DNA from: a bacterium
GTDB lineage: Bacteria > Armatimonadota > Zipacnadia > Zipacnadales > Zipacnadaceae
Direction: 5' to 3'
Assembly: GCA_030602615.1 (NCBI GenBank)
Contig: JAUVZM010000001.1
Coordinates: forward strand, 73,720-137,719
DNA: 64,000 bases
Positions within the stretch are counted from its first letter, which is position 1, and the number at the start of each line of letters is the position of its first letter. Position numbers and translations under genes: made by a program. The notes under the pieces are model-generated. The model saw only the letters and a list, made by a program, of their open reading frames with translations, was not told where the DNA came from and did no database searches. This document shows, piece by piece, positions 17,867 to 45,489 of the stretch.

Positions 17867-17897
17867 TTGCATCGTTGTAGTGCTCCTTGTTTGTCGC

Positions 17898-17925
17898 GGC
17901 AGGAATGCCGCTCCTACCGGTTTGG
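17898..17925 (+). terminator. Intrinsic terminator after the atp operon (same hairpin sequence as 507..535)
   Basis: GGCAGGA-atgccgc-TCCTACC then GGTTTGG. Identical at 27 of 28 nt to the hairpin at 507..535. Confidence 0.5.
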
Positions 17926-18060
17926 CAATAGTTTCGTTCTGTTCATCTTGCCGGCAACAAATAGACCCCTGAGAAGGAGATAGGGCGCAGCTTAGAGAAG
18001 GGGCTATTGTGGCTTGGAATATCACTGCGAAGGCTAAAGCCTGTATAAGGGGGTTCCAAC

Positions 18061-18876
18061 ATGCAATGGGGACTTGAAAACCGTTTGGCGCAGATTATTC
18101 GACCGGAGACGGGCCGAACCGTGATGCTGGCTATTGACCACGGTTACTTCCAGGGGCCGACTACCGGCCTGGAGGAACCGGGAAAAACCGTCGCACCGCT
18201 TCTGCCCTATTGTGACGCGCTCAGCCCGACCAAGGGGATACTCCAATACTGTATCGATCCGCTGACCGCTCCCCCGATTATCCTGCGGGTCTCGGGCGGC
18301 AACAGTATGGCCCGGCGCGACGAGTTGGACGATGAAATCCTCACCTGCACCATTGAGCAGGCTGTTGCGCTTAATGCCGTCGGGGTATCAATCTCGATAT
18401 ACGTCGGTACCGAGCATCAGCGCCAGACAATACAGAATCTGGCGACAATGGCCGACGAGGCCCACAAGTACGGCCTGGTGGTCCTGGGGATCAGTGCAGT
18501 TGGCGCGAGCCTGGGCGAGTTGCGCGAGCCGGGCAAGGAGCAGGAGTTCGCCCGCTATTTGGCCCTGGCCAGCCGCATCGCCGCCGAACACGGTGCTGAC
18601 ATCTCCAAGACTTACTACGTGCCCGGCCATTTTGATAAAGTGGTGGGCGGCTGTCCTATCCCTATTGTGCTCGCCGGCGGCAAGAAAGTGCCGGAGGCCG
18701 AGGCGCTTGAATTCTCCTACAACGCCATTCAAGACGGTGCCTCCGGCGTTGACATGGGCCGCAATATCTTCCAGGCGGAATCACCGGTGGCTATGATCCA
18801 GGCCGTCCGCGCTGTTGTGCACGAGGGCAAGGCATCCGAGGAAGCCTACGAATTGTACCAGAGCCTGGCCAAATAG
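18061..18876 (+). CDS. Class I aldolase of the DhnA/LsrF/FbaB (DeoC-LacD) family
   Basis: 271 aa. LAIDHGYFQGP signature, with a TIM-barrel aldolase Lys region. Confidence 0.65.
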   Translation: MQWGLENRLAQIIRPETGRTVMLAIDHGYFQGPTTGLEEPGKTVAPLLPYCDALSPTKGILQYCIDPLTAPPIILRVSGGNSMARRDELDDEILTCTIEQAVALNAVGVSISIYVGTEHQRQTIQNLATMADEAHKYGLVVLGISAVGASLGELREPGKEQEFARYLALASRIAAEHGADISKTYYVPGHFDKVVGGCPIPIVLAGGKKVPEAEALEFSYNAIQDGASGVDMGRNIFQAESPVAMIQAVRAVVHEGKASEEAYELYQSLAK

Positions 18877-18892
18877 CTGCCAGGAGCAGGAT

Positions 18893-19936
18893 ATGGTCAG
18901 AGGAAACTCTATGAAAGTGGGGATGTACTACAACAATCGCGATGTGCGTGTCGAGCAGATGCCGATTCCGCAGATTGGTCCGGGCGAGCTGCTTATGGAG
19001 GTCAGGGCCAGTGGGATCTGCGGCAGCGACGTTATGGAGTGGTATCGCATTAAGAAAGCCCCCCTGGTTTTGGGCCACGAGGTCACCGGCGATGTTGCTG
19101 AGGTCGGGCAGGCCGTTACTGACTATCAGGTCGGCGACCGCATCTTTGTTACCCATCACGTGCCCTACAACACCTGCCACTATTGCCTGAGTGGGCATCA
19201 TACTGCCTGTGAGACGCTGCATACTACCAACTTCTACCCCGGCGGCTTTGCCCAATATGTGCGTGTACCCCCGATCAATGTGGATCGGGGCACACTGCGT
19301 TTGCCCGCAGAGGTTTCCTATGAGGACGGCTCGTTTATCGAGCCGCTGGGCACGGTAGTGCGCGGCCAGCGCAATGCTGGTGTTGGCCCGGGCGACAGCG
19401 TGCTGGTGCTGGGCTGTGGCATCGCTGGCCTGCTGCATGTCAAGCTGGCCCAGGCACTGGGGGCCAGCCGGATTATGGCTACTGACATTGATGACTACCG
19501 AATGGCAGCCGCGCGCAAGTTGGGGGCCGACAGTGTTGCTGATGCCGCCGAAGACATCCCTGACTTCGTTCGCCAGGCCAACGAGGGCCGACTGGCTGAT
19601 AAGGTGATAGTCTGCGCCGGAGCAGTGGCGGCATTCGGGCAGGCCCTGGAGTCGGTTGACCGCGGTGGCGTGGTGCTGTTCTTTGCTGTGCCCAGGCCCG
19701 GCGAGACGGTGGCCGTTGATTTCAATCGCTTTTGGCGCGACGACATATCCTTTATGCCCAGCTACGCGGCGGCGCCCCAGGATAATGCCACTGCTCTGGA
19801 GCTTATCAGGTCGGGGCGAGTGGTAGTTAATGATATGATCACCCACCGATTGAGCCTGGAGGAAATCGGCGAGGGCTTCCGCCTGGCCAGCGCCGCTGAC
19901 CACTGTCTTAAGGTGATAATACAGCCAAATGGCTAA
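18893..19936 (+). CDS. Zn-dependent medium-chain dehydrogenase (sorbitol / threonine-DH-like)
   Basis: GHEVTGDVAEVG catalytic-Zn motif, Cys-rich structural Zn loop, Rossmann GCGIAGLL. Start moved to ATG 18893, after AGGAGCAGG. The tool ORF at 18815 overlaps the aldolase. Confidence 0.8.
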   Translation: MVRGNSMKVGMYYNNRDVRVEQMPIPQIGPGELLMEVRASGICGSDVMEWYRIKKAPLVLGHEVTGDVAEVGQAVTDYQVGDRIFVTHHVPYNTCHYCLSGHHTACETLHTTNFYPGGFAQYVRVPPINVDRGTLRLPAEVSYEDGSFIEPLGTVVRGQRNAGVGPGDSVLVLGCGIAGLLHVKLAQALGASRIMATDIDDYRMAAARKLGADSVADAAEDIPDFVRQANEGRLADKVIVCAGAVAAFGQALESVDRGGVVLFFAVPRPGETVAVDFNRFWRDDISFMPSYAAAPQDNATALELIRSGRVVVNDMITHRLSLEEIGEGFRLASAADHCLKVIIQPNG

Positions 19937-20046
19937 GCTGCCCGCTAGTTGGCGATGTGGTGTCGTCTGTTATTGTGCCTTCGCGGCTTGACAGCAGCCG
20001 TCAACTCTGGGAAAATGGAATAGGAAACAATAGCTTTGGCAGGAGG

Positions 20047-21453
20047 ATGGTTCAAGTGACGAGATGGATGAGAATTGCGGTAGTATTGCTCGCTGCAGCA
20101 GTAGTGGCCGGCTGCGGGGGCGGCCCGAGCTCCTCTCGACAGACCAGTCGCCAGCAGCTCACCATTCGCGGCACCAGCTTTCCGCAACAGCTAGAGCCAG
20201 CCAGCCAGGTGAGCGTCTATGAAGACGACTACAACGGCTGGCCAGCGCTGTTTATGAAGAATGGTCTGGTCACGGTAGTGGCAGTGCCGGCCATCGGCGG
20301 TCGGATTATGGAGTACAACCTGGGCACTCACCCCTTCCTGTGGGTCAACGACGCTGAATTTGGTAAGACCTATGACCCACCCAAGACAGAGGAAGAGCGA
20401 CGGTGGCACAACTATGGTGGGTACAAAGTGTGGCCGGCCCCAGAGAGCCGCTGGGACGGGCCGCCTGATCCGTTGGGCTCGGCTCTGGATGGCGGAAAGT
20501 GGACTGGCGAGATCACTGCCCACGGTGGCCAGATTGGGGAGATTGAGCTGGTCAGTCCCGCTGACGAGAACGTGACGGGTTTGCAGATTAAGCGGAGAGT
20601 ACAGATGTTTGCTGGTACTACCCAGGTAGTGGTTACCGAGACCTTCGAAAACGTAAGCGCCGAGCCGATTGAATGGAGTATCTGGGGAGTCACCCAGGTC
20701 CGCGGCTCGCTGTCCAGCAGCGAAAAGTTCAGTGAACAGGCCCGCATCTACTTCCCGCTGAATCCCGACAACCGTGCCTCGAAGGGCTTCTGGTATTTGA
20801 CCAAAGGTCCGTCGGATCAATTTCAACTGCTCGACGATGGGAAGCTGATGCAGGTCTCTTACGGCTTTGAGACCAGCAAAATCGGCGCAGACGTAGCTGA
20901 CGGCTGGATGGCTTACGTTGACGATATTCACCAGTATGCTTTTGTCCAGCGTTTTGAGGAGCGGAGCTTGAGCGAATATCCCGACCAGGGCGCGAACGTG
21001 GAGGTATATACCTCGGGTGAAGAGTTCGCCCATATGGAGATGGAGACACTCAGCCAGTTATACACCCTCCAGCCCGGCGAGACGAAATCCTACTCTCAAC
21101 AGTGGTATGCCACCAGCTTGCCAGGACCGGTTCGCGATACCACCGAGCTGGCGGCTATCCGCGAGCCGTTGCGCCTGGAAAGTGTGGAGGCGGGATTGCA
21201 GCTTACTGGCGAGCTGGGCATATTTGCGCCAGGAACCCTTGAGGTCGTCCTGACTGACAGTGCAGGGAGACCTATGGGCGAGCCGGTGGCTGCGATCACA
21301 GTCAGCCCAGCACAGACAGTGGTGTTGGACCAGATTGTAACGCCGCAGCCAGAGGCGTCGGCACTGGTCCTGAGACTGGTCAACGACTGGGACACACCGC
21401 TGGGCGAGGTAGCCAGCGTCTCGTTGGCGACCCAGACCGCGCAGGCCCCCTGA
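20047..21453 (+). CDS. Secreted lipoprotein, possibly DUF4380 / mutarotase-like fold
   Basis: Lipobox LLAAAVVAGCGG after an AGGAGG RBS. GGRIMEYNL motif and a beta-rich sequence. No catalytic assignment possible. Confidence 0.45.
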   Translation: MVQVTRWMRIAVVLLAAAVVAGCGGGPSSSRQTSRQQLTIRGTSFPQQLEPASQVSVYEDDYNGWPALFMKNGLVTVVAVPAIGGRIMEYNLGTHPFLWVNDAEFGKTYDPPKTEEERRWHNYGGYKVWPAPESRWDGPPDPLGSALDGGKWTGEITAHGGQIGEIELVSPADENVTGLQIKRRVQMFAGTTQVVVTETFENVSAEPIEWSIWGVTQVRGSLSSSEKFSEQARIYFPLNPDNRASKGFWYLTKGPSDQFQLLDDGKLMQVSYGFETSKIGADVADGWMAYVDDIHQYAFVQRFEERSLSEYPDQGANVEVYTSGEEFAHMEMETLSQLYTLQPGETKSYSQQWYATSLPGPVRDTTELAAIREPLRLESVEAGLQLTGELGIFAPGTLEVVLTDSAGRPMGEPVAAITVSPAQTVVLDQIVTPQPEASALVLRLVNDWDTPLGEVASVSLATQTAQAP

Positions 21454-21635
21454 ATCCGATGGTAAAGACCCGCATTTACCATTTGTCACTGGGAGGTAAG
21501 AGAGCTGGATGAGGCCCTGGGCTTGACCGAGTTAACGGGGCTTACGCCGGTAGCGGGTGACTATGCCCTTACTGCGGCGAAGGATCGGTGGTGTTGCGTA
21601 TGCCCAGGCGGGATTGTCTCTGCTATCGCCCCAGC

Positions 21636-21669
21636 GCTGTCATACTTGTTCAATTCGGGGCAGAATCCC
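21636..21669 (+). promoter_or_regulatory. Conserved promoter module (copy A): CTGTCA, 18-nt spacer, CAGAAT
   Basis: 31 of 34 nt identical to 30322..30355, and matches the inverted copy at 26741..26771. RBS GAGGTGG and ATG 21683 follow. Confidence 0.55.
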
Positions 21670-21682
21670 AGAGGTGGACGAA

Positions 21683-24304
21683 ATGTACAATGCCAAAGCA
21701 ACAGTGTTTTTGGCAACTCTGATGTGTGCAGTAGGACTGACAATATGTGAGGCGTACACCGAGAGCTTCCCCGGGGGGATCTTGGGGCCACGGCAATCAC
21801 AGATCCCGGCGGCGCAGTGGACGAAGGCCGAGTTAGACAAGGGGTACGTGGTCTTCACGCATAGCACCTTGGAGGGCCTTCAACCCGACTACGTGCCCGC
21901 GCGGAGAGCGGTCGTCGGCAAGGTATCCTGTGCCCTGGCCCAGGGTGAGTACAAGTCCGTGCAGATCGGCGTCCACTCGCTGACCGGAGGCCTTCAGAGC
22001 GTGCGCCTGGAGCTTGAATCGGACCTGGAGGCCAGGATATACCGCTCCATTGACGGGGAGACGAGGAAGCTGCTTCTGGGATATGAGAACCCCGTGCCTG
22101 ACTCGATCCATGCCGTGTGTCTGGACGAGTCGAGCCGGATCGCCTCGATCGAGAAAGGGAGCACCTCCTTTTTCTGGGTGACCCTTCATGCAGAGGAGAA
22201 CGCCACTGCAGGCAAGCACCGTGGCAAGATGCTTATCCGACCCGCGGGCAGGCCTGCCACGGAACTGGATCTGGAGGTGACCGTAAGGCCCTTCAAACTC
22301 CAGCGCGCCAGAATTGCCTACGCTCCGTTCTTCTACGTGGAGTGGAAGCCGGGGGCGCTCCCCAAGTTCGCCCAGACCGACGAGTGGATCGGCGCCTTCT
22401 TCCGCGACATGGCCGAGCACTCGCACACCTCCGTCATCATACACGGCGCGGGATTCGTGGACTTCTCCAGGCTCCCCCCTCCGGAGAACCGGTACTTCTC
22501 TACGCTGCTCCCTCTGGCCAAGCAGGTGGGTCTGACCAGCCCCGGCATCCCCATCATCGTTATGGACCACAACATGGCCCGGAGGCAAGACCAAGGCGGG
22601 ATGGAGACCGTGGAGCAGAGGAATGCGGCTATGGACTGGTACGAGGCAGAACGGCGCAAGCACGGCTGGCCGGAGATCGCCGCTTATGGCCAGGATGAAC
22701 CATCTTATCCGCATCCTGTTGTTCGGAGGAACTGGGAGTGGTTCCGCGATGTACGGATGCGGCTAGCCACCGCGTTGTTTGCCCCGGCAGCGTACGGGTT
22801 CGGAGATTTCCACGATATCTGGATTGTGATTGGGGGAAGTATCACGCAGGAGATGGTCGCGGAGGCCGAGCGGATGGGCGCGGAAGTGTGGACCTACATC
22901 TGTACGCCCATGTCCAACAATCCCCTGCACGAACGCCACTATGCAGGCCTGTACGTCTGGGCATACGGATTGAAAGGTCATACCACGTGGCATCACTATG
23001 ACGGGGGCGAGTTCAAGCTCGTGTGGATGCGGGAAGGCGACCAGCGCCCGATGCCGCTGGTCGGGTGGGAGACCCGTCGCGAAGGCGTTGACGACTACCG
23101 TTATCTGCAGATGCTGGAGGACTGCGTTGCGGCCCAGCCGGGCAATCCCCTGGCCGCTGAGGCGAAGAAGTGGATAGCCGGCCTGCGCGCCCGAATCGTC
23201 ACAGCGGATCCCTACATCCGAAACGTTCCTGGAAAGCCTTTGGCCCTGGATGAGTATGACCGTATCCGCGAGAAAGCGGCGGGGTACATCCAAAGGTTGG
23301 GTCCAGTACCGGCGGACCGGATTCCCCCGAGTCCACCCACACGCCTGAAAGACGAGGCGAAGCTCTTCCGAGGCAAGCCCGTGCAAGAGTGCATCGCCGG
23401 CCTCAGGAGCACGCAGGCCTCCACCCGTCGCGCGGCAGCATGGGCTCTGTTCGAAAAAGGCTGGCAGGCCGCCCCGGCTGTGCCAGCTCTGACGGACTTG
23501 CTGGACGACACCGATGTGCGCATACCGGCGTTGCGGGCGCTGGAGGCGATCGGGCATGAGAGCCGCCCGGCCCTGCCGAAACTGACAGCGCTCCTGAAAC
23601 ATCCGGACGGGTTCGTGCGACTGGGCGCCATTCACGCCCTGGGCGCCATCGGAGCACCTTCCATTCATGCGCTGATGCAAGCGACGGGAGACGAGTATTG
23701 GCCAGCCAAGTGCCGTGCCGCGAACTACATGCCGTGGATGGCAGGACAAGCAGCTCTGCGATCGGCGATGCCCGCCGTGCTGCCGGTCCTGATCAAGCTA
23801 CTCGACGATCCTAGCCCGAATGTGTGGACGTCGACTTTGTGGGCCTTCGAGCTCATCGGCCCGGAAGCTGCGCCCGCCGTGCCGCACATCATCAGGCTCA
23901 TACAGGGAGTTGTCCCAACTACCCGTCTCCGCTACCATAAACGCTGGACCGATGCACTGGCAGCCATCGGACCCGGAGCGGCGCAAGCCGTACCCATGTT
24001 GGAGGAGTTCCGCAAGGACCACGGCTCTTCAGATCCGCTCGCGGAAGCCTATGCGTTAAACGCGCTGTACAGAATCAGGGGCTCGCCGGAGGACCTCCAC
24101 GCGCTCGTCGCCCTGATCAGCGGCGCCGGAGAGGGACCGATAGACGCATCCGCGGCCCTGCAAAAGCTGGAGGAACTGGGCAGCGAGGCGAGAGACGCCG
24201 CGCCCCAGATCCGGGAGCTGATCGCTCAGGGCGGCCTGAGCGACGACGTGAAGAAGCGGCTTGAGGCAGTCCTCGATTCGATAGCCGCCCCGGCCGGCGA
24301 GTGA
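21683..24304 (+). CDS. Secreted GH123-like (DUF4091) putative beta-N-acetylhexosaminidase fused to C-terminal HEAT/PBS-lyase-like repeats
   Basis: Signal peptide MYNAKATVFLATLMCAVGLTICEA. Central region is paralogous to ORF 26984, sharing the G.DEPS motif, WTY.C block and REGV(D/E)DYR(Y/L)L motif. The C-terminal ~300 aa are repeated AAPAVPALTDLLDD / ALRALEAIG HEAT-like units. Start set to ATG 21683; the tool ORF starts at 21557. Confidence 0.6.
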   Translation: MYNAKATVFLATLMCAVGLTICEAYTESFPGGILGPRQSQIPAAQWTKAELDKGYVVFTHSTLEGLQPDYVPARRAVVGKVSCALAQGEYKSVQIGVHSLTGGLQSVRLELESDLEARIYRSIDGETRKLLLGYENPVPDSIHAVCLDESSRIASIEKGSTSFFWVTLHAEENATAGKHRGKMLIRPAGRPATELDLEVTVRPFKLQRARIAYAPFFYVEWKPGALPKFAQTDEWIGAFFRDMAEHSHTSVIIHGAGFVDFSRLPPPENRYFSTLLPLAKQVGLTSPGIPIIVMDHNMARRQDQGGMETVEQRNAAMDWYEAERRKHGWPEIAAYGQDEPSYPHPVVRRNWEWFRDVRMRLATALFAPAAYGFGDFHDIWIVIGGSITQEMVAEAERMGAEVWTYICTPMSNNPLHERHYAGLYVWAYGLKGHTTWHHYDGGEFKLVWMREGDQRPMPLVGWETRREGVDDYRYLQMLEDCVAAQPGNPLAAEAKKWIAGLRARIVTADPYIRNVPGKPLALDEYDRIREKAAGYIQRLGPVPADRIPPSPPTRLKDEAKLFRGKPVQECIAGLRSTQASTRRAAAWALFEKGWQAAPAVPALTDLLDDTDVRIPALRALEAIGHESRPALPKLTALLKHPDGFVRLGAIHALGAIGAPSIHALMQATGDEYWPAKCRAANYMPWMAGQAALRSAMPAVLPVLIKLLDDPSPNVWTSTLWAFELIGPEAAPAVPHIIRLIQGVVPTTRLRYHKRWTDALAAIGPGAAQAVPMLEEFRKDHGSSDPLAEAYALNALYRIRGSPEDLHALVALISGAGEGPIDASAALQKLEELGSEARDAAPQIRELIAQGGLSDDVKKRLEAVLDSIAAPAGE

Positions 24305-24528
24305 GAAATCAGCAAAATAATCTTCCAGATGGTGGAGGTGGCAGTATCCAGGGAGCTCTTTGAGCAAGTATTGGGACGAATCTGGGCCTTAACGCCCGGC
24401 ACTGGGTGACAGTGCCGTCGGCGACGGGATTATTGATAGTTAGTGTCTGGCGCAGGCCAGCCCTCACTGGAACGTGGGCTAAGTGCGATAGTGGCGCTTG
24501 AATTCTGTGACTATCTTGTTAAAACCAC

Positions 24529-26613
24529 TTACTCTCCCGCTACTGGCATCCACACGCGCATTGCGGAATCGGCGCGATTAGCCCAGGCATAATAGGGAAT
24601 AGCCGTCACCAGGACTTTGTCCCTACGCATTGTGGGTCGCGTACCTAGCGGATGATAGAGGGGACTGTTCTCCGGGGCATAGCAAACTGGCAAGGCCCGC
24701 CGGCGCAGGACGGTCACGCCGCCCAGCAGGTCGGGCTGCCACTCAGGCCGGAAGCCGCCCTCCGGGTCTGGCGTCTCGAAGACCAAGGCCAGGTCAGCCA
24801 GAACCGTGTCGGGATTATCTACACTCTCAAAGCAGTAGACTAACGGGCCACGCTGCAACGCCACACAGCCCCGGTTCTCCGCCACACGTGGATGGCTTTC
24901 CATTATTCGCACCGGCATTGGTAACTGCAGGCGGACCGTATCTCCGGGCCGCCACCGGCGTGTAAGCTTTAGATAATTGCCAGGCTCAATGGCCGCAGAC
25001 AATGGCTCATCATTCACCGCTGCCGCGGCTCCTGCTGCCCAGCCCGGAATGCGGAGGAAGAGAGTGAACTGTGCAGGTTGTTGCAAATCTAACGCGATTT
25101 CAATCTCGCCCTCCCCCGGGTACTTAGTGTCCATCTTCAGTGTGACTCGGGGGCCGTCGGGTACAGGGAGCGTGGCCTGGCAGGTATCGTAAAGGTGCAC
25201 CCAGAGGCCCTGGCGGCTGGTACTGAAGAGGTAACCGGGAACAGCCGCCAGCGTACGGTGGATGTTGGGGGGGCAGCAGTTGCACGGGAACCAGGACTGC
25301 CGCTGGTAGCCGCCGTCCGAGGCCAGCGGGTTGCCGTAGAAGTATTTGCTCCCGTCCAGAGATACGCCGGACAGAAAGCCATTGTATAGAATCGTCTCCA
25401 TCACATCCGCATACTGGGCCTCGCCCGTCAGCAGCAACATGCGCCAGGCCCACATTGCGTGCGCGATCTGTGCACAGCTCTCGGCATAGGCCCAGGTGAG
25501 TTCGTTATAGTGCGCCCGCGGTCCAGGGAAATACCCCCATCGTCCCCCGTGTTGTGAAGGCCGTGTACCGGTGGTGTCGGCCCAGGCGTTAGGCAGCTCG
25601 TACCGCTCACCGAAAGACTCGCCGCGAGCCCCCATGCCACCAGTGATGTAGATCTTACCTCCGACTAAGTCCTGCCACAAGGACTGCAGGTTGGCCCACA
25701 TCTGCTCGTCGCCAGTTTCAGCATAATAGTCAGCTCCGCCACAGCAGAGATAGCCGGACCGGACGGCGTGACCTACCACGATGCGATTGTTTAGATATTG
25801 GGACTGGCCCAAGAAGAAGGCAGCGAGGTCCCAATAGCGCGTCCTACCGGTGGTGCGGTACAGTTCGATCAGGGCCATTTCCACCTCGGGATGTCCGGGG
25901 GCGGCCTCGATTTTTCCGGGGCCAAACTCCTGGCATATATAATCAGCGAGGCGGCAGGCCACTTGCAGCAAACTGTCCTGGCCGGTGGCCCGGTAGTAGG
26001 CAATCGCCGCCTGCACTAGATGCCCGGCGCAGTACAGCTCATCGGGGCAAGTGTTGAGGAACAAGCGGCCGTCTTCGCCCTGGGCGGCTGCGATGTCGTC
26101 AATAATTGCTGCCACCGTTTGCCGCAGTTCAGGCAGATCCTGCGACTGGAGAGCCCAGGAGACCCCCTCCAGCCACTTATACAGGTCAGATTCGCTGCCG
26201 TAAGAAGCGTCCCGGAATTCAACCTGCTTGCGTCCGGACAGGCGCCGGAAATTATCCACCACCCCATGCTCCTCCATTAGACGTAGGAAAGTGGGCATTC
26301 CCTCCTTGGCATTGGCCTCCATTCGCGGCCGCCAAAAGCCTGGCCCCATTGCTACCGCCCGGATCGGCACCGATTGCAACCGAAACTGCGACCCCCGGCG
26401 GGTATCGACAACGCCGCCTTGTTGCCACTGGTCCTCCGGTTGTAGTTCCCTATCTTCGACAATGCCGCCGTTGGGGTCAAAACCTGTGCGTGCCACGACA
26501 CCCTCAGGCACCGGTCTGAAGGCTGGTTTAGCTTTTCCTGCACGAATCACGCTAACAAGCAATGCGCAAACACCAACTAGCACCAACAAGTCAGACAGTC
26601 TCATGTTCTTCAC
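24529..26613 (-). CDS. GH127 (DUF1680) beta-L-arabinofuranosidase-like glycoside hydrolase
   Basis: 694 aa. N-terminal signal anchor. GH127-type GFWRPRMEANAKEGMPTFLRLMEEHGVVDNFRR block and Cys-rich catalytic region. GTG start. Confidence 0.75.
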   Translation of the reverse strand: MKNMRLSDLLVLVGVCALLVSVIRAGKAKPAFRPVPEGVVARTGFDPNGGIVEDRELQPEDQWQQGGVVDTRRGSQFRLQSVPIRAVAMGPGFWRPRMEANAKEGMPTFLRLMEEHGVVDNFRRLSGRKQVEFRDASYGSESDLYKWLEGVSWALQSQDLPELRQTVAAIIDDIAAAQGEDGRLFLNTCPDELYCAGHLVQAAIAYYRATGQDSLLQVACRLADYICQEFGPGKIEAAPGHPEVEMALIELYRTTGRTRYWDLAAFFLGQSQYLNNRIVVGHAVRSGYLCCGGADYYAETGDEQMWANLQSLWQDLVGGKIYITGGMGARGESFGERYELPNAWADTTGTRPSQHGGRWGYFPGPRAHYNELTWAYAESCAQIAHAMWAWRMLLLTGEAQYADVMETILYNGFLSGVSLDGSKYFYGNPLASDGGYQRQSWFPCNCCPPNIHRTLAAVPGYLFSTSRQGLWVHLYDTCQATLPVPDGPRVTLKMDTKYPGEGEIEIALDLQQPAQFTLFLRIPGWAAGAAAAVNDEPLSAAIEPGNYLKLTRRWRPGDTVRLQLPMPVRIMESHPRVAENRGCVALQRGPLVYCFESVDNPDTVLADLALVFETPDPEGGFRPEWQPDLLGGVTVLRRRALPVCYAPENSPLYHPLGTRPTMRRDKVLVTAIPYYAWANRADSAMRVWMPVAGE

Positions 26614-26771
26614 TTCTTCTTTCAGCGAGATTTCCCAGATGCTTTGTTGCTGCCTGTAGCATCCTCTGTTTACTGCACTGCTTCCTCCCGATGCGGATCA
26701 TTTAGCTAGAAAAACTCCAGATTAGAACACTTCTGACGAAGATTCTACCCCGAATTGAACAAGTTTGACAA
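26591..26771 (-). promoter_or_regulatory. Conserved promoter + leader + uORF cassette (copy C, oriented with GH127)
   Basis: On the minus strand: TTGTCA, 18 nt, TAGAAT (plus coordinates 26741..26771). Leader CGTCAGAAGTgTTCTAATCT...GCATCGGGAGGAAGCAGTGCAG follows. A 23-codon uORF (26591..26662, MLQAATKHLGNL...) overlaps the GH127 start in the +1 frame. Confidence 0.55.
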
Positions 26772-26876
26772 CTTTTGGACCGATGGCAAAGACAGTCCCG
26801 CTTGGGCATAAACCCAATCACCATTGCTACAGAATAATGGTTCAACTGCTACCTATAATTCTAACACAACTGTCCC

Positions 26877-26905
26877 TTGATAGCAAGCCCCCCGTGTGCT
26901 ATAAT
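26877..26905 (+). promoter_or_regulatory. Sigma70-like promoter for ORF 26984
   Basis: TTGATA, 17 nt, TATAAT in the divergent intergenic region. Confidence 0.45.
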
Positions 26906-26983
26906 AGGAAGGTAACTTTCGCAACAGTCTCAAACAAGTAAGAGCCAAATGCTAAATCTCGATGAGAAGGAAAGGATGCTGCC

Positions 26984-28765
26984 ATGAGAATGATTGCCAA
27001 CGACTTGCGGTGTTATGTCATATGGATGCTGGCGGGTGTCTGGTGCGTGGCACTGATGACAAGCGCGTTCGCGGCGGCTGAGCAAGCCGACCGGGTCATG
27101 AACTGGCGCCAATATCCCACTCCTTACGGGACGCCCGCCACGGCCCGCCCGCCGGACGAGGCGTTCTTGAAGGTCATACCGCCCTTGAAGACACTGGGTA
27201 CCATCAGTGACGAGGCGAAGGAGTTGGGGGTCGCCGTCTGGTGGGCCGACTACGGGCAGAATGTCTTTTGCGAGCAGCCGCCGACCGACGAGGACCTCGC
27301 GCGCAAGGGCGCAATCCGCACGAGCGCGGGCGAGGACGAGCCGTTGGTCCTGGCGCTGTGGGGGCTCGACGACGTGGGCAATGCGACGCTTAGCGCGAAC
27401 GCCCCGGTCTTCCCGGTCACGATCCGCAAAGTGGAGTTTGAGCCCCGGTACATCCCGGGCGACTACCGGGACTATCACATCGACGGTGGGCGCAAGGTGG
27501 GCATTCCCACGTATCTGCCGGAAGAATCGAGCGTCGTGGTGAAGGCTGGCGAGAACGCGCCGTTCTGGGTGACGGTGTCCGTGCCCGAGGACGCCGCGCC
27601 CGGGACTTACGAGATTCCGTTCCGGTTGATCCTCACGGACGCGAACAAGGCCGTGACGCTCGCGGTCACGGTCGAGGTGCTGCCGTTCGAGCTGCCGCGG
27701 GCGAAGATCGCCTACGGTATGTATTTTCGCCCCTCGGCGAAGACGCTCGAGAACCCGCGCGACCGCACGCCGGAGCGGCTGCGTTTCTACTGGCGAGATA
27801 TGGCACGTCATGGCATGACAAGTGCGACCCTCTACAACTACACTCGCCTGCACGATCCTGAGGGGAATCTCAATCTCCACACCGTGCCGGTGCTGGGGTG
27901 GCTTGAGGAGATGATCGAGGAAGGGCTCGTCACGCCGGACGTGCCCGTCATGTACCTGGACGGCGGCGGGATCGACCTGGCGAACCCCAAGACGCCGGAG
28001 ATCCTCGCCTCGCTCAAGGAGGAGATCGCCGAGCGCGGCTGGCCGGAATTCCTCTACTACGGGCCCGACGAGCCGTCGGTCAATGACAAGGGCTGGGCGG
28101 ATTTCGAACGCCTGCAGCCCTTGCGCGAGTATTTTCGCGTCGTCACCGCGATCGGCGATCACGCGGTAAACGCGTATGCGGATTTTCTGGATGTTTATAT
28201 CGTGAACGCCGGTTGCACGAGCCCGGAAATGTACAAGCTGGCTGCCGACAAGGACGCGGAGCTGTGGACCTACACATGTCACAATCGAGGGCGAAGCAAT
28301 GCGCCGTTCCAGCGATACTACGCGGGCATTTTCACGTGGGCGCTGCGCCTGAAGGGAAACTTCATGTGGGCTTACACCGAGAACTATACGCGGGAAAAGG
28401 GTCAGTATCTTCCCTGGTCTCCGCTGTACTGTTACGTGGTTCCCAGCGACGAAGGAGCGATCCCGTCGATCGCCTGGGAAGTCCGCCGGGAGGGTGTGGA
28501 GGACTATCGCCTGCTTACGCTCCTGGAAGAACAGATAGCGAAGAATCCTGACAACACGGTCGCTGCCGAAGCGAGAGACTGGCTGGAGCAACTGCGCGGG
28601 CGCGTTGACTGGTATATCGCGCGCGACATGCCACCGTCGCTGTATCCGTGGGACGGTCCAGAACTCTATCCGCTCTGCCCGAACTTCGAACCGGCGGAGT
28701 TCTCGAAGATCCGGGCCAAGGTGATCGATTACATTCTTCAGTTGAGCAGCGCCGCCGGCGGCTAG
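26984..28765 (+). CDS. Secreted GH123-like (DUF4091) protein, paralogue of 21683
   Basis: 593 aa. Signal peptide. Shares the LPRAKIAYG, YGPDEPS, WTYTC and REGVEDYRLL blocks with the 915-aa protein. Confidence 0.6.
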   Translation: MRMIANDLRCYVIWMLAGVWCVALMTSAFAAAEQADRVMNWRQYPTPYGTPATARPPDEAFLKVIPPLKTLGTISDEAKELGVAVWWADYGQNVFCEQPPTDEDLARKGAIRTSAGEDEPLVLALWGLDDVGNATLSANAPVFPVTIRKVEFEPRYIPGDYRDYHIDGGRKVGIPTYLPEESSVVVKAGENAPFWVTVSVPEDAAPGTYEIPFRLILTDANKAVTLAVTVEVLPFELPRAKIAYGMYFRPSAKTLENPRDRTPERLRFYWRDMARHGMTSATLYNYTRLHDPEGNLNLHTVPVLGWLEEMIEEGLVTPDVPVMYLDGGGIDLANPKTPEILASLKEEIAERGWPEFLYYGPDEPSVNDKGWADFERLQPLREYFRVVTAIGDHAVNAYADFLDVYIVNAGCTSPEMYKLAADKDAELWTYTCHNRGRSNAPFQRYYAGIFTWALRLKGNFMWAYTENYTREKGQYLPWSPLYCYVVPSDEGAIPSIAWEVRREGVEDYRLLTLLEEQIAKNPDNTVAAEARDWLEQLRGRVDWYIARDMPPSLYPWDGPELYPLCPNFEPAEFSKIRAKVIDYILQLSSAAGG

Positions 28766-29082
28766 TGCGCCCCAACCGGGATCGTCAGCTTTGAGACGTT
28801 TGGGCCTGCATTATAGAGAGCGCACAACTTGCCCGGCCGCCAGCGCGGACGGGAGCCATAGACCTTGAGCCTGAAGATGTCCTCCTCAACTCGGTAGCAA
28901 GACGTAGCCAGCAGCTCGCCGCCGGGCAACAGTGCTACGGAGGTTTTATAGATGTCCCGCTGCCCGATGCGAACCCGCATGGCCGGTTGAAGGGTCCAGT
29001 GGACCACCTGCTGCAAGTCGAAGCCAGTAAAGCCAGCCATCCCTTCCGGGTACTGGGCATAGTCTGGCTCTTCGGCGAACAC
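28762..29082 (-). CDS. Short hypothetical ORF, possibly a gene remnant
   Basis: 106 aa from a GTG start. The stop overlaps the convergent GH123-like gene. No domain recognised. Its upstream end runs into leader copy 1. Confidence 0.2.
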   Translation of the reverse strand: MFAEEPDYAQYPEGMAGFTGFDLQQVVHWTLQPAMRVRIGQRDIYKTSVALLPGGELLATSCYRVEEDIFRLKVYGSRPRWRPGKLCALYNAGPNVSKLTIPVGAH

Positions 29083-29111
29083 CGGCGCCGTAGCCGGCTC
29101 GATTGGCGCCG

Positions 29112-29289
29112 CCCCGTCAGAAGTCTTCTAATCTCGGGTCTTTCTAGCTAATTGATTCGCATCCGGAGGAATTAGTGCAGGAAATAGAGAATGTCAAACG
29201 TAGTAACAAACGATATGAGAGACCCCAGTTCACTGTCATCCAGGCATTCCTGGTGCTCTGGCTCGACTAAGGGGGAAAGGAATAACGCT
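29112..29289 (+). promoter_or_regulatory. Conserved leader + uORF cassette (copy 1, lacks the -35/-10 module)
   Basis: CCCCGTCAGAAGTCTTCTAATCTCGGGTCTTTCTAGCTAATTGATTCGCATCCGGAGGAATTAGTGCAGGAAATAGAGAATG, about 90 % identical to copy 2. The uORF ATG at 29191 (MSNVVTNDMRDPS...) runs in frame into the PIG-L gene. Confidence 0.55.
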
Positions 29290-30198
29290 ATGTCTAAAAG
29301 ACCGCTCGTAGTCGAGAATATTCTGCCGGACGAAAACATTAACATCCTGGTCGTTGGTGCGCATCCGGCTGATGCGTTTGATGATATCGGCGGCACGCTG
29401 GCCCATCACGCGGCCCGGGGCGATCACATCACCGCCTTAATCCTGACACACGGAGCGCGTGTCCACGATGTGGTCTTGACCGATGAGGTGGGCCAGCGCG
29501 AGCGCGCTCCCACCCGCGAGGAACTGGAGCCCATCATCGAGGAGCGCACGAGCGTGAAGCACCAGGAAGTCCTGGAAGCCTGCCAGATTCTAGGGTTCTC
29601 CGACTTGCGCTTCCTCACCTACGACGACAGCGTCCTGACCCTAAAAGAGGAGCTCATGCAGAGGATCGCTAAAGTCATTCGAGAGGTGCAGCCGCATCTC
29701 CTCATTACTCACTATCCCCTCGAAAGCGGAGGCATCGCCAGCCACCATGCTATCACGGGCCAACTGGTCCTCAATGCCGTGGGGTCGGCCTCCAGAGTCT
29801 CGCCTGAAGACCCTAACCCCCCATGGGGGGTGCCCGAGGTCTATTTCAAGGCCATCCATACGGCACTGGCGAGGCCAGACGTGCTGAGTCACGCTACTGC
29901 AGGCTTTGCCAATGTCTATGTGGACGTCACCGACGTCATCGAACTCTTAGTCAAGGCTCTGGACAAGATGAAGAGCCAACAGTACAACGGTGCCTGGGCC
30001 CGTAAATCCCGCGAGGTGTACGAGGGCGTCTTTGGCCTCAATGTCGGTGTCGCCTACGCCGAAGCGTTCATCCGCCTTAGGGCACAAGTCTGCGATTACC
30101 TGCCCCTCTCACACTATGCCATGGCAAGGGCTAACGAGCTTGAAGCCACTGAGCACCGTCGCCAGAACCTCCTAGTGTGCCATACAGTGCCTGAATAG
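29290..30198 (+). CDS. PIG-L / LmbE-family N-acetylglucosaminyl deacetylase
   Basis: ILVVGAHPADAFDDIGGTLAHH (HPDD-type motif) and the H..H zinc region. RBS AAGGGGGAAAGGA before ATG 29290. The tool ORF starts at the upstream in-frame ATG 29191. Confidence 0.7.
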   Translation: MSKRPLVVENILPDENINILVVGAHPADAFDDIGGTLAHHAARGDHITALILTHGARVHDVVLTDEVGQRERAPTREELEPIIEERTSVKHQEVLEACQILGFSDLRFLTYDDSVLTLKEELMQRIAKVIREVQPHLLITHYPLESGGIASHHAITGQLVLNAVGSASRVSPEDPNPPWGVPEVYFKAIHTALARPDVLSHATAGFANVYVDVTDVIELLVKALDKMKSQQYNGAWARKSREVYEGVFGLNVGVAYAEAFIRLRAQVCDYLPLSHYAMARANELEATEHRRQNLLVCHTVPE

Positions 30199-30321
30199 TC
30201 GTACAGTGGTCTTTATGTTGTCAACTGTATCAGTATGCGGGTGGATATGGCAGGTGCACCAAGCGGCGGTTGTTCTGTCTGATGTTGCCAAGGCAGGAGT
30301 GTCTCTGCCCTGGGCCCGCAA

Positions 30322-30508
30322 GCTGTCATACTTGTTCAGTTCGGCGCACAATCCCCGTCAGAAGTCTTCTAATCTCGGGTCTTTCTAGCTAATTAATCCG
30401 CATCGGAGGAATTAGTGCAGCAAACAGAGAATATGAGTAGTCCCAGATTAGTGCAGGAAACAGAGAATGTTGAACGTACTGGCAAAGCATATGAGAAATC
30501 CCAGCTAA
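30322..30508 (+). promoter_or_regulatory. Conserved promoter + leader + uORF cassette (copy 2)
   Basis: CTGTCA, 18 nt, CACAAT module, then the same ~80-nt leader with an internal 22-nt duplication (ATTAGTGCAGcAAACAGAGAAT repeated). 13-codon uORF at 30467..30508 (MLNVLAKHMRNPS). Located upstream of the MttB-like gene. Confidence 0.55.
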
Positions 30509-30554
30509 CCAAAACCCCAAGCCGACGAGTTAGCCTACCATTGTAGGGAGATTA

Positions 30555-31979
30555 TTGGAATTGATTACTTTCCGCCTCGACGGTGGGTTCACGGAAGCCC
30601 AACTGGATCAGGTATACAGCGAAACTTTCCAGGTACTTGAGGAAATCGGCGTGGAGGTCGGCGACGACGAGATTCGTCAGTATCTGGGAGAGTTACCGGG
30701 CATCTCCGTGCGAGGCACACGGGTCTGCTATGCCCCCAGCCTGGTGAAAGAATGGATCGAAGTCATCAAAGAGGACAATCTTGAGTACGCTTACAACCGC
30801 AAAGACGGCCGCATCCGGATGGTCGGACCGTACATGGGACAGTACTATCACGACCCAGACACCGACGAGGTGCGGCTAGCGACCGGGGCGGATATGAGCC
30901 TTGCGGTGAAGCTGTGCGACGCCCTTGACTTCTACGGTCCCTCGCCGATCCACCTGCAGACCGTCCCTCCACCTGTTCGCCAAGTGACGACCTTCAAGAT
31001 CTGTGTGGAGAACAGCCGAGAAGTCGGTGGCTGGGGGCCGGCGGCCACCGAGAAGGACGGATACTGGCTGTGCCAGATTGGTGAAGCGGCAGGGCGCCAG
31101 CCTCCGCACTGCTGTATGGAGATCCCCATCAGCCCCCTGCGGCTCAACCACAAGGCTCTACGGATGATTTACAATCGCCGTAATCAGGATGATCAACTGA
31201 CCGGCATGGTACTGGGCGGCGGGGTTGTGCCGATGCCTGGAGCAACGGCGCCCATCTTTGCGCCAGCCTGCTTTATCCAGAGCATGGCCGAGGCCCTGGC
31301 CGCCTACATCACCCCTCAGTTAATTGATCCCCGAGTGCAGGGGTACTGCTCGTTCGGCGGTAAGCTGTTCGATCTGCGGCGTATGACCCCAAGTATTATG
31401 TTTCCCGAGACTGCCCTGTACACCAGCTTGGTCCGGCAGGTCATTCAGCGTTTCTTAGGTGAGACGATGGGCGGTCAACTCGCCGATGTGGGTATCATGA
31501 AAAGATTCGAAGACTACAGTGTGGACGGGTTTGGCAGCCCACAGGCCACCCTTGAGTTGGGCTTCCGCATAGCCCTGGACATCCTGGCCGGTGCGCGCAC
31601 CTTCCTGGGAGTAGGTGGGTACGGTGATGGCTTCTGTCCCGTGACGGCGGTTATTGAGGCCGACCTGGTGAACCACTTTACTAAATTCATTGCTGGCTGC
31701 GCATACCGTTATGAACCCGGGATCAATCTACGCACTATGACCGAGGCCCTGGAGGACAAAAACTACCTGGCGCATCCCACGACGCTAGAGTATCGTGAGC
31801 TGTATCTAATCCCAGAGTTGGTCTTCAGGCATGACACGCGCCCGGAACTGGTCGCCGCCGCTTGGGAGAAGGCCCAACAGATAGTCGCCGAGCACGACTA
31901 TGCGCTGCCCGAGGACGTACAGCGCAACGTCACAGAAGTCTACGAAGCGGCGTGTGCAGACCTACTGGAAGGGAAGTAG
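30555..31979 (+). CDS. MttB-superfamily methyltransferase, non-pyrrolysine member (quaternary-amine:corrinoid methyltransferase-like)
   Basis: 474 aa, TTG start after GGGAG. PMPGATAPIFAPACFIQSMAEALAAYIT resembles the MttB GATAP...AGxL block. No in-frame amber codon. Confidence 0.55.
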   Translation: MELITFRLDGGFTEAQLDQVYSETFQVLEEIGVEVGDDEIRQYLGELPGISVRGTRVCYAPSLVKEWIEVIKEDNLEYAYNRKDGRIRMVGPYMGQYYHDPDTDEVRLATGADMSLAVKLCDALDFYGPSPIHLQTVPPPVRQVTTFKICVENSREVGGWGPAATEKDGYWLCQIGEAAGRQPPHCCMEIPISPLRLNHKALRMIYNRRNQDDQLTGMVLGGGVVPMPGATAPIFAPACFIQSMAEALAAYITPQLIDPRVQGYCSFGGKLFDLRRMTPSIMFPETALYTSLVRQVIQRFLGETMGGQLADVGIMKRFEDYSVDGFGSPQATLELGFRIALDILAGARTFLGVGGYGDGFCPVTAVIEADLVNHFTKFIAGCAYRYEPGINLRTMTEALEDKNYLAHPTTLEYRELYLIPELVFRHDTRPELVAAAWEKAQQIVAEHDYALPEDVQRNVTEVYEAACADLLEGK

Positions 31980-31982
31980 ACC

Positions 31983-32930
31983 ATGGGGCTGCAAATCAGA
32001 GATTTCGCGCCTGTGGGTGCTGATCTGGCGACCATCTGCCACATCTGGAACGAAGCGGTGGCCCCAGAATCAGAATTGTATCTGCATATGACGCCAGAGT
32101 TGCTGGCCGAGCGGCTTGCCGGTCGCTCTGGTACACCTAGGCGCATCTGCCTACTGGCGCAAGCCCAGGGCGAAGCCATAGGGCTGGCCGTAGGGACGGT
32201 GACGCCAGCGGCAGCCCCTGAAGCGGCCAATCTGGCCTGTGTAGCAGTGTTGCCGCAGGCCCGGTGGCATGGTATCGGCTCAGCCCTACTAGCTGAAATT
32301 GAGGAAAGAAGCCGGGCCGCCGGCTGCACCAAGTTGAAGGTGGGCTCTGCTTCCCAGGTCCGGCTGGCCCACGGCGTTGCCCCGACTACACCCGGCCATC
32401 TGTGGCTGCTGCACAAAGGCTTTCGCGTCGCCAAAGACGAATTGTTCATGCGCATGGCATTCGGCACATGGCAAATGCCAGGGCAGATCCAGCAAATAAT
32501 CGAGGGCCTCTGCGCTCAGGGCGTTGACTTTCGCATAGCGACAAAGGGTGACCTGCCTGGGCTTATGGCCACTGCCCGAGAGTTTAGCGACCATCTACCC
32601 CAGATATTCCAGGATAACGTGGCGGGAGCCAAGGGCGCACCGGTGCTGATTGCAGTAGAGGGTGGACAGGTGGTGGGGTTCGTCGGCCCGCTGACGGTAT
32701 CGAAGTGCGGCTTTGCCGACTTCGCTTTTATAGGTGTTTCTGAGACTTACCGGGGTCGGGGGATCGGCAAGGCGCTGTTCTATCTTTGCTTGGACAATTT
32801 CCAGGAACGCGGCGCCCGCGCTTTTGAGCTGGTGACCGACTCGACCAACCCTGCGCAGAAATTGTATCTGGACGCGGGCATGCGCCTGGTGACTGTGTTA
32901 TTACATCTTGAGAAGCGTCTGGGCCACTGA
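31983..32930 (+). CDS. Tandem-GNAT N-acetyltransferase
   Basis: 315 aa with two acetyl-CoA binding cores (VLPQARWHGIGSALL and VSETYRGRGIGKALF). ATG lies 4 nt after the MttB stop. Confidence 0.7.
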   Translation: MGLQIRDFAPVGADLATICHIWNEAVAPESELYLHMTPELLAERLAGRSGTPRRICLLAQAQGEAIGLAVGTVTPAAAPEAANLACVAVLPQARWHGIGSALLAEIEERSRAAGCTKLKVGSASQVRLAHGVAPTTPGHLWLLHKGFRVAKDELFMRMAFGTWQMPGQIQQIIEGLCAQGVDFRIATKGDLPGLMATAREFSDHLPQIFQDNVAGAKGAPVLIAVEGGQVVGFVGPLTVSKCGFADFAFIGVSETYRGRGIGKALFYLCLDNFQERGARAFELVTDSTNPAQKLYLDAGMRLVTVLLHLEKRLGH

Positions 32931-33338
32931 GGTCACGCCATAGGGCGTCGGCCCCCTCCGAGGCTTGTCAAGTCCAAGGCAGAATACGTCCAATACAGAG
33001 GTTAGGCGAGCCCAAGACGCCACAGGAGGAGAACGACGAGTTGGAAGATACTTGTCCAACTCAAGGCAGCCTCAGCCTGTGGCGTAATCATTACGACCGC
33101 CTCTACAGAACACTGAGCAATTCAACACATATCTTCGCCGTCAAGTCCCAAATAGGAGGCTCGTCTCCCCACCGGGGCAGGAATATCGTTCAATACCCAA
33201 AGAGTTAGGCGGATCTAAAGGCTCCGGTCTGGCTAGGCCAGAGCATTTCTTGTGTAGCACTCGCATAGTGACCACAGGGCTGAGAGGAATCTATGCACTC
33301 ATCGCTGGCAAATTCCTCCGTCACTGCTTTCTGGCCGG

Positions 33339-34739: not shown

Positions 34740-34898
34740 TGTCTCTAACTCCTGGCTAACTGGACATAATCAGAGGCTTCCTACCAACTTTCGTCATGTA
34801 CATTGGCAGTTGAGGGCGCGTTATCTCCAGGCACCAGCCTGTTTTACAGAAAGTTCGAGTGACTGCTTACCTGCGCGTATCTTCCCTGCAGGTCCCGC

Positions 34899-39822: not shown

Positions 39823-39848
39823 ATCGATATACGTGCCTCCAGCCTAAC

Positions 39849-40946: not shown

Positions 40947-41055
40947 TAGCTTTTCCTCCTATCTGAGTTGCTCAGTAGCTATACTTTTAACACAAATCGC
41001 CGCTGCTGGCAACCGTTCGGAGGTGTTTGGAGTTGCGTCGCGGGCAGCACTTGAG

Positions 41056-45439: not shown

Positions 45440-45489
45440 GAATGGTTTGCCCGCCAGCCGCTGGCCAAGACGCTGCCGGAGGTGCGCTA

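Follow-up and report, generated by a model that had tools for sequence, protein, structure and literature searches.

The window analysed here is a 64,000-nucleotide stretch of contig JAUVZM010000001.1 from an uncultivated bacterium of the Armatimonadota. Between positions 21469 and 33200 it holds a block of genes that we regard, at slightly better than even odds (a probability of about 0.55), as a co-regulated, strain-variable accessory island for glycan foraging, assembled from known protein families. A first-pass annotation had described seven genes at 20047-32930 as one secreted glycan-processing island, several of them under a common regulatory leader. All seven, called P1 to P7 here in their order along the window, lie where they were described and their family assignments hold throughout: a DUF4380 lipoprotein (P1), two GH123-like proteins (P2 and P4), a GH127 glycosidase (P3), a PIG-L-fold protein (P5), an MttB homologue (P6) and a GNAT acetyltransferase (P7). 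The extent of the island has to be shifted, however, to the block defined by comparison with relatives, which leaves P1 outside (Table 1).

This comparison relies mainly on a close relative that lacks the block (L088, GCA_030615605.1). With blastn, window positions 19986-21468 correspond to L088 9931-11413 and window positions 33201-34804 to L088 11411-13014, with clean breakpoints at 21468/21469 and 33200/33201. In L088, and likewise in a contig from SRR14872670 (L089), the DUF4380 gene, a 91% ortholog of P1, stands directly beside mgtE with no island between them. P1 is therefore a backbone gene, and the proposal that it belongs to the island is not borne out. At the other end, some 270 nt of non-coding DNA 3′ of the GNAT gene fall inside the variable block. 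The island itself is found in related strains. A Logan contig from SRR14872667 (L001) encodes the exact GH127 protein of the window, and a sister strain in SRR24954018 (L002) has the same island genes plus two more. Window and L002 are 94-96% identical at the nucleotide level within the island and 88% in the adjacent backbone carrying P1 and the alcohol dehydrogenase (ADH) gene; that the island is more alike than the backbone hints at recent exchange.

Table 1. Features of the island and its immediate surroundings (positions in the window)
Position	Strand	Feature	Basis
17882..19985	+	Second variable backbone segment: DeoC/LacD (LsrF-like) aldolase and Zn-dependent dehydrogenase	Pfam
20047..21453	+	P1, DUF4380 (mutarotase-like) lipoprotein; backbone gene adjoining the island	Pfam DUF4380 46 bits; lipobox
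21469..33200		Accessory island proper, 11.7 kb, missing from a close relative	blastn breakpoints against L088
21599..21669	+	Cassette module A only (TGTCA-N18-CAGAAT) before P2; module B deleted in this strain
21683..24304	+	P2, predicted exported GH123/DUF4091-like domain (about residues 1-590) with C-terminal HEAT repeats, 873 aa	Homology to P4; HEAT_2
24529..26604	-	P3, GH127 glycosidase with N-terminal signal or anchor, 691 aa from ATG 26604	Three GH127 Pfam domains
26643..26810	-	Full cassette (TTGTCA-N18-TAGAAT plus module B) before P3; module A 26741-26810, module B 26643-26738	Promoter scan 10/12
26877..26905	+	P4 own promoter-like site TTGATA-17-TATAAT, without cassette	11/12 matches; TG extension
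26984..28765	+	P4, predicted exported GH123/DUF4091-clade glycosidase, 593 aa	PF13320; AlphaFold 2 model
28762..29082	-	Small conserved open reading frame, 106 aa	Called as 114-aa gene in L002
29112..29232	+	Cassette module B only, promoter absent, before P5
29290..30198	+	P5, cytoplasmic PIG-L/LmbE-fold metalloenzyme, 'HPAD' subfamily, 302 aa	Pfam PIG-L (PF02585) 78.6 bits
30286..30509	+	Full cassette before P6 with internal partial duplication; module A 30286-30355, module B 30353-30509	Repeats 30404-30432 and 30440-30468
30555..31979	+	P6, non-Pyl MttB-superfamily TIM-barrel protein, 474 aa	Pfam MTTB 47.8 bits
31983..32930	+	P7, acetyltransferase with two GNAT domains in tandem, 315 aa, starting 4 nt after P6	Two Acetyltransf_1 stretches, 83.7 bits

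The shared leader suggested by the first-pass annotation is real. It consists of a sigma-70-like promoter (module A, ~70 nt) followed by a 5′ untranslated region (UTR) of about 100 nt (module B), and we refer to the two together as the cassette. Repeat finding combined with BLAST recovered four copies, all within the island and 80-96% identical to one another, with none elsewhere in the 64 kb; shuffled sequence gave no match at all, which places the repetition far beyond chance. Module B begins at the predicted +1 region with a partial palindrome (AGAAGTCTTCT) and contains a GGAGGA motif and a short ATG-initiated open reading frame (ORF). The copies are not equally complete (Table 1), and the L002 orthologue of P2 keeps both modules.

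The cassette copies coincide with the sites at which genes have been gained or lost between strains. L002 has cassettes upstream of five genes. One of its two extra genes, for a GFO/IDH/MocA oxidoreductase, is inserted between P2 and the GH127 gene with a partial copy of module B upstream; the other, encoding an uncharacterised secreted protein, follows the PIG-L gene, is led by a cassette and is located at the very point where the MttB leader of the window is partially duplicated. This duplication (30404-30468: CGGAGGAATTAGTGCAGCAAACAGAGAAT, then ...GATTAGTGCAGGAAACAGAGAAT) looks like the scar of a recombination between cassette copies. A pattern search for the cassette found no match in genome contigs and one in metagenome contigs, L009, where a full cassette lies upstream of a secreted BNR/sialidase-like gene. 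The cassette-led ORF of this 2.2-kb contig (612-2048, minus strand) joins a BNR/sialidase-like N-terminal half in frame to a MeaB/ArgK GTPase C-terminal half, which is probably a chimeric assembly or a rearrangement and not a real fusion.

We considered two ways in which the leader might act by itself, and reject both. A riboswitch or other structured RNA is opposed by the lack of any Rfam match at the gathering score across the window, or at E ≤ 1 on positions 26560-30600, and by the folding behaviour of the leader: the RNAalifold consensus reaches −7.4 kcal/mol without a single compensatory pair, and the minimum free energy z-scores against shuffles lie between +1.7 and −0.6, so that it folds no better than shuffled sequence. 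A conserved leader peptide or upstream ORF fares no better. Of 9 copies, 8 have the ATG and 13 codons, but they do not agree on the position of the stop; variable sites are distributed 11/6/8 over the three codon positions, without a codon-position bias, and the codon differences comprise 187 non-synonymous and 33 synonymous changes. Since it offers neither RNA structure nor Rfam match nor coding signal, the leader is to all appearances an element of primary sequence. The most economical inference is that the cassette combines a common promoter with one or more sites for a trans-acting regulator, either a protein or a small RNA. Because the leader is common to several island genes, their co-regulation can reasonably be inferred.

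A different kind of observation concerns the ends of the island. We looked for signs of a recognisable horizontally acquired mobile element, and this explanation is unsupported: composition is ordinary (GC content 0.565-0.627 in the island against 0.546-0.627 across the whole window), Pfam scans detected neither integrase nor transposase in the island, no tRNA is present in the 64-kb window, and the junctions share an AAAGA microhomology only. Exactly at the right junction, at 33201-33250 (L088 11411-11460), a GC-rich hairpin precedes a T-run (AAAGGCTCCGGTCTGGCTAGGCCAGAGC...TTTCTTG). The same hairpin recurs with ~90% identity in contig L010 (~3330-3390) where the next gene downstream is a different one and encodes a transporter that is EamA-like. 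This element may act as a bidirectional terminator common to these loci, or as a repeat through which rearrangements occur.

The seven proteins fall into an exported and a cytoplasmic group, as judged from their N-termini. Hydrophobic N-terminal segments are found in P1 to P4 (15-residue Kyte-Doolittle maximum 2.1-3.2) but not in P5 to P7 (0.4-1.2), in agreement with the four signal-peptide proteins of the first-pass annotation, and we predict export of the proteins that carry such a segment.

Among them, P2 and P4 are paralogues as had been claimed: the first ~590 residues of P2 match P4 with 31% identity over 433 aa (E 1e-49). P4 matches PF13320 (GH123_cat/DUF4091) with 36.2 bits, the cut-off being 23.1. 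For P2, in contrast, the Pfam scan yields only HEAT matches (HEAT_2 63 bits, corresponding to a C-terminal repeat tail of ~290 aa) and no PF13320 at E ≤ 0.01, so that the proposed check by this profile succeeds for P4 alone and P2 would be a GH123 member by transitivity only, through its homology to P4. The AlphaFold 2 (AF2) model of P4 is of high confidence (predicted local distance difference test score, pLDDT, 94.1), and the top 22 Foldseek matches in the PDB are all GH123 structures (E 5e-28 to 3e-19, TM 0.52-0.66, 13-17% identity). The best of them is NgaDssm (8k2j; E 5e-28, TM 0.60/0.66), which is also the closest solved relative by sequence (E 1e-7). The quoted motifs are both there, YGQDEPS in P2 and YGPDEPS in P4, together with RREGVDDYRYL and RREGVEDYRLL, respectively. 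The D-E pair is kept: D362 and E363 of P4 do not vary among 39 aligned family members, P2 being one of them and keeping the other family invariants as well, and the YGPDEPS segment of P4 aligns with ADEP of NgaDssm and MDER of CpNga123. The latter acidic pair has chain positions D367/E368, which we take to be D344/E345 of the literature on the assumption of a 23-residue expression tag.

P4 thus resembles the GH123 enzymes (NgaP, CpNga123 and BvGH123; NgaDssm, NgaCa, NgaAt and NgaLy) in its N-terminal β-sandwich, (β/α)8 barrel and DUF4091 region, and P2 and P4 share with them the consecutive D-E catalytic motif at the aligned position. They differ from the solved members in the identity of just 13-17% for P4 and, for P2, in the PF13320 score below threshold and the HEAT tail. 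Because of the fold match of the P4 model and the D-E motif we place both in GH123, in what appears to be a branch without a characterised member. All occurrences of this clade are in metagenome-assembled genomes (MAGs), from Armatimonadota, Latescibacterota and the PVC group, and a genome often has many copies; the nearest named homologue of P4, 76% identical, is labelled Planctomycetota. A recent study redefined GH123 as a large family whose members contain DUF4091 and conserve a DE motif, and all members that it tested were active on β-GalNAc, one of them on β-GlcNAc too (Sumida et al. 2024, PMC11087588). A specificity of P2 and P4 for β-GalNAc would be an extrapolation from enzymes with which they share 13-17% identity. 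An alternative 915-aa start of P2 (GTG 21557) was rejected in favour of ATG 21683; the additional upstream stretch is the promoter module, and the orthologues in L001 and L002 are called at 873 aa.

The assignment of P3 to GH127 is firm. All three domains of the family are recognised by Pfam, the catalytic six-hairpin domain (PF07944, 262 bits), the middle domain (PF20736, 81 bits) and the C-terminal domain (PF20737, 87 bits), and the Geobacillus structure 4qjy matches with E 1e-107. The ORF scanned spans 24529-26613 on the minus strand. The motifs GESF (acid/base Glu), AESCA (E-x-C) and CNCCPPN (Cys/Zn) all align with their counterparts in 4qjy, so that the catalytic and zinc motifs are kept. 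In HypBA1 the corresponding residues are presumably E322, E338, C340, C417 and C418, forming a Cys nucleophile, a Cys3-Glu zinc site and a Glu acid/base. P3 has the three-domain architecture and the GESF, E-x-C and CCPPN motifs in common with HypBA1 (3wkw), 4qjy and the aceric-acid hydrolase BT1003 (5mqo). It differs from the GH127 structures by an insertion of ~30 aa between the acid/base Glu and the E-x-C zinc-ligand motif, close to the active site, and from HypBA1, which is cytoplasmic, by its N-terminal signal or anchor. Against the NCBIfam equivalog for aceric-acid hydrolase P3 reaches 435 bits, short of the 950 that the cut-off requires. Since the family has several known activities, including this last one, a preference of P3 for β-L-Araf would again be extrapolated. 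The Bifidobacterium extensin cluster has GH121 and GH43 partners, which the island lacks.

P5 had been described as a cytoplasmic PIG-L/LmbE N-deacetylase. Family membership stands, with 79 bits for the Pfam domain and no hydrophobic segment at the N-terminus, but the activity is doubtful. The best PDB match is the archaeal diacetylchitobiose deacetylase Dac (E 1e-9). P5 shares the domain and the three zinc ligands (H-x-x-D ... H) with the deacetylases Dac, MshB and BshB, and the ligands H25, D28 and H153 are 93-97% conserved in 86 subfamily sequences. Aligned with Dac, P5 has HPAD in place of HPDD and ASHH in place of HPDH. MshB and Dac use the first Asp of HPDD as general base; P5 has Ala at this position, and the subfamily as a whole Ala, His or Lys. 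An exhaustive search collected 1099 representatives at E ≤ 1e-3; among the best 150 of them, where the motif was recognised in ~117, HPAD occurs 64 times, HPHD 18 times and HPDD once. P5 further scores far under all NCBIfam equivalog cut-offs. The term 'N-deacetylase' is uncertain because the general-base Asp is missing across the subfamily, and P5 is better described as a PIG-L-fold zinc enzyme without the canonical general base, its deacetylase label being an extrapolation. A longer form of 335 aa starting at ATG 29191 is unlikely, the extension being leader sequence common to other genes; gene calls of the Prodigal type arrive at 302 aa. Within the leader of the PIG-L gene, the short ORF (29191-29289) shares the reading frame of that gene, and one public annotation (NCBI) starts the protein there.

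For P6, the claim of a non-Pyl MttB homologue is confirmed. The profile of its family matches MtgB (9yce) with E 1e-17, the AF2 model has a pLDDT of 85, and the top 10 PDB structures found by Foldseek all belong to the MttB superfamily (TM ~0.72). The ORF is uninterrupted, and a Leu aligns with pyrrolysine (Pyl, X) of 7xcl. P6 has in common with the superfamily (MttB, MtgB, MtpB, MtcB, MtyB) the TIM barrel, and with MtgB the absence of Pyl. In MtgB the quaternary amine is held by the π-cation Tyr Y97, with F356 as a further aromatic residue and R312 and H348 as carboxylate ligands (PMC13080624). The residue corresponding to Y97 of MtgB is Y93, a Tyr invariant in the P6 family. In contrast to MtgB, R312 and H348 are not conserved, being replaced by Thr/Glu and Gly, respectively; F356 falls within an unaligned insert.

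The genomic surroundings of P6 are unlike those of the superfamily methyltransferases. No gene for a corrinoid protein or B12-binding domain was detected in the ±8-10 kb around the gene, whether in the window, L005/L006, L007, L008 or L010, although a partner may be encoded elsewhere, and neither MT2 nor a reductive activase is encoded near the subfamily in these five contexts. What is found instead are carbohydrate-type genes and GNATs. The subfamily is small, with 35 matches (clusters at 90% identity) from uncultivated lineages only, and its neighbourhoods contain GHL10 with BNR, AP_endonuc_2 with GFO/IDH/MocA and 2-Hacid_dh, or DUF4838; a GNAT gene is near in 3 of 4 independent contexts. 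The methyltransferase role given to P6 therefore survives at the level of family and fold, whereas the label itself is uncertain because no corrinoid protein adjoins the subfamily in the five contexts. P7 is indeed a double GNAT, with two Acetyltransf_1 stretches, and has no close or informative solved relative. The P6-P7 pair is also present in L010 (93% identical), downstream of a different gene and without a cassette.

From these elements the island could work as follows. Three exported exo-glycosidase-type enzymes, P2, P3 and P4, would probably trim a complex glycan outside the cytoplasm. The two deeply divergent GH123-clade enzymes are expected to use substrate-assisted catalysis on a 2-acetamido sugar via their D-E pair, and the GH127 Cys/Zn glycosidase to act on a β-L-arabinofuranoside or a related furanoside. 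The amine- or acetamido-bearing products would then probably be processed in the cytoplasm by P5, P6 and P7. All transcription units but one carry the portable cassette, comprising the sigma-70-like promoter, the partly palindromic +1 region and the unstructured leader of ~100 nt, from which it follows that the island most likely behaves as one regulon under a trans-acting factor encoded elsewhere.

A number of observations weigh against this interpretation. The regulatory argument is built on sequence, and P4 has a promoter of its own without the cassette. Neither a transporter nor a regulator is encoded between 21469 and 33200. A PIG-L deacetylase and a GNAT acetyltransferase side by side have no obvious catabolic logic, quite apart from the missing general base of P5 and the missing corrinoid partner of P6. 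A further point comes from a survey of 77 GH123-like loci (1.1 Mb) in species-representative genomes encoding P4/P2-family proteins (tblastn, E 1e-8): GH127, PIG-L, a P6-type MttB, a P7-type GNAT or DUF4380 was found within 10 kb in 0 of the 77. A Pfam census of 120 neighbour ORFs of the GH123-like genes is heterogeneous, with two matches each for MTTB, URO-D, GFO/IDH/MocA, BNR and GHL10. Because of these 77 loci and their mixed neighbours, comparative genomics does not support a single dedicated pathway, and the first-pass idea of one route for the degradation or remodelling of a glycoconjugate finds no backing there. The functional linkage within the island rests on the cassette and on adjacency in one shallow lineage, not on deep synteny. 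MttB-superfamily genes of subfamilies other than that of P6 do occur within 10 kb of GH123-like genes in L031, L034 and L080, MAG contigs of which two are from Candidatus Zipacnadia and one is from Lentisphaeria, with URO-D neighbours in two loci. TIM barrels of the methyltransferase type may be associated recurrently with the P2/P4 glycosidase clade, though the recurrence is weak.

The lack of synteny is also what an assembly of unrelated genes at a recombination hotspot would predict. In that case a strong promoter/leader, duplicated in a slot of the flexible genome, would spread by homologous recombination and mediate it in turn, so that the genes may be co-expressed without serving a single pathway. 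Gene content does vary at the cassettes, as seen from the two genes particular to L002, the loss of module B at P2 and the partly duplicated MttB leader; the MttB-GNAT pair of L010 follows another gene and has no cassette, and the neighbouring slot 17882-19985 is variable as well. On the other hand, all cassette genes are carbohydrate-related or found in such contexts (GH123-like, GH127, BNR, GFO/IDH/MocA, PIG-L, MttB-like), and paralogous cassettes have remained 80-96% identical over ~100-200 nt, as if a common function were maintained by selection or gene conversion. We consider the hotspot a serious competitor, though clearly the less probable explanation. It is rather unlikely that the island consists of two separate modules, P2 to P4 foraging glycans and P5 to P7 acting independently on small molecules, for instance amines with methyl or acetyl groups, or amino sugars linked to inositol or an aminocyclitol. 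MttB-like and GNAT genes do recur away from GH123 and GH127 (in L007, with AP_endonuc_2, GFO/IDH/MocA and 2-Hacid_dh, and in L008 and L010), the π-cation Tyr of MtgB has its invariant counterpart in Y93, and GlcNAc-Ins and GlcNAc-PI, on which PIG-L enzymes are known to act, are conjugates of inositol. Yet P5 and P6 share their leader with the GH127 gene, the carboxylate ligands of MtgB are not conserved in P6, and no corrinoid protein, MT2 or reductive activase is encoded nearby.

We give very little credence to a role in self-glycan remodelling, in which the exported enzymes would trim or recycle glycans of the cell's own envelope or exopolysaccharide. The absence of a transporter, the HEAT extension of P2, which could tether the enzyme to envelope partners, and the position of the island amid housekeeping genes would all suit this idea; but a close relative does without the island, and such dispensability is unusual for envelope maintenance; nor does the island include a glycosyltransferase or polysaccharide export gene. 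A more far-reaching form of the foraging hypothesis, speculative and in our opinion improbable, is that the MttB-fold protein, the recurrent GNAT and the HPAD-type PIG-L protein under the cassette constitute a new route for N-methylated or N-acetylated amino-sugar or aminocyclitol moieties freed from complex glycans, operating without a dedicated corrinoid protein or with a distant one, and that the cassette is a new kind of primary-sequence module copied between genes to recruit members to a regulon. Such a route, if true, would be the first carbohydrate-linked function in the MttB superfamily.

The foraging island we favour has its closest parallel in the strain-variable gene clusters of carbohydrate-active enzymes (CAZymes) and the polysaccharide utilization loci (PULs). 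As in those systems, exported glycosidases are clustered, apparently co-regulated, and present or absent between close relatives. Unlike PULs, the island has no SusC/D pair, no ABC or MFS transporter and no sensor or regulator, and what points to co-regulation is a cassette duplicated across separate transcription units, not an operon. All of the proteins are members of known families, and CAZyme clusters that vary between strains are a familiar kind of system; by itself the island reveals no new pathway, and we infer both the substrate and the link between exported and cytoplasmic enzymes. Its interest for specialists lies in the corrinoid-orphan, GNAT-associated MttB subfamily in sugar contexts, in the HPAD PIG-L subfamily and in the portable cassette, none of them tied to a mechanism yet. 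If our reading is right, seven genes and one promoter/leader would provide a compact experimental handle on three clades that abound in uncultivated glycan degraders and of which no member has been characterised: one branch each of GH123 (that of P2 and P4), PIG-L (HPAD) and the MttB superfamily (corrinoid-orphan). A natural knock-out would also be at hand, as island-plus and island-minus relatives come from sequencing runs with neighbouring accession numbers. It would further mean that a regulon can be put together and rearranged through duplicated cassettes, needing neither an operon nor a linked regulator.

Of the genes next to the island, P1 has a lipobox VVAGC (…LAAAVVAGC) and a promoter-like site of its own at 19988-20016, without a cassette. 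Its score against the NCBIfam 'TTE1925 family mutarotase' is 72 bits, under the cut-off. Named DUF4380 homologues, up to 85% identical, come from Armatimonadota, among them members of the class Candidatus Zipacnadia. A literature search on DUF4380, TTE1925 and the combination of GH123 with GH127 turned up nothing useful. Another protein, of DUF4432 (319 bits; 43322-44431, minus strand), is encoded some 10 kb away from the island, surrounded by housekeeping genes; we take DUF4432 to be a further galactose-mutarotase-like family. Within the island, the small ORF at 28762-29082 has no Pfam or NCBIfam match.

The variable slot to the left of the DUF4380 gene (17882-19985) is occupied in L088 by a single class II aldolase gene instead. 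The aldolase of the window matches NCBIfam PRK08227, an LsrF-type '3-hydroxy-5-phosphonooxypentane-2,4-dione thiolase', with 364 bits against a cut-off of 297. The left flank consists of the ATP synthase operon followed by the genes of this slot, the right flank of mgtE, plsC, cmk, aroA, tyrA and the DAHP synthase gene, and the remaining window is core chromosome with dnaE, hisD, gidB-parAB, tsaD and the rib operon. For DnaE and MgtE, members of the clusters at ≥90% identity carry the label Armatimonadota. Together with the DUF4380 homologues, these labels led us to place the host in that phylum and to drop an origin in Planctomycetota, which the nearest named homologue of P4 had suggested at first. 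At 39777-40949 a 390-aa ORF on the plus strand without a Pfam match overlaps a 365-aa ORF on the minus strand; the plus-strand ORF is probably spurious, because the syntenic gene in L088 encodes a class I/II aminotransferase of 366 aa on the minus strand. Finally, gidB, parA and parB lie together at 44792-47140 and the cumulative GC skew has its maximum at ~33-35 kb, for which reason the window may be close to the replication origin.

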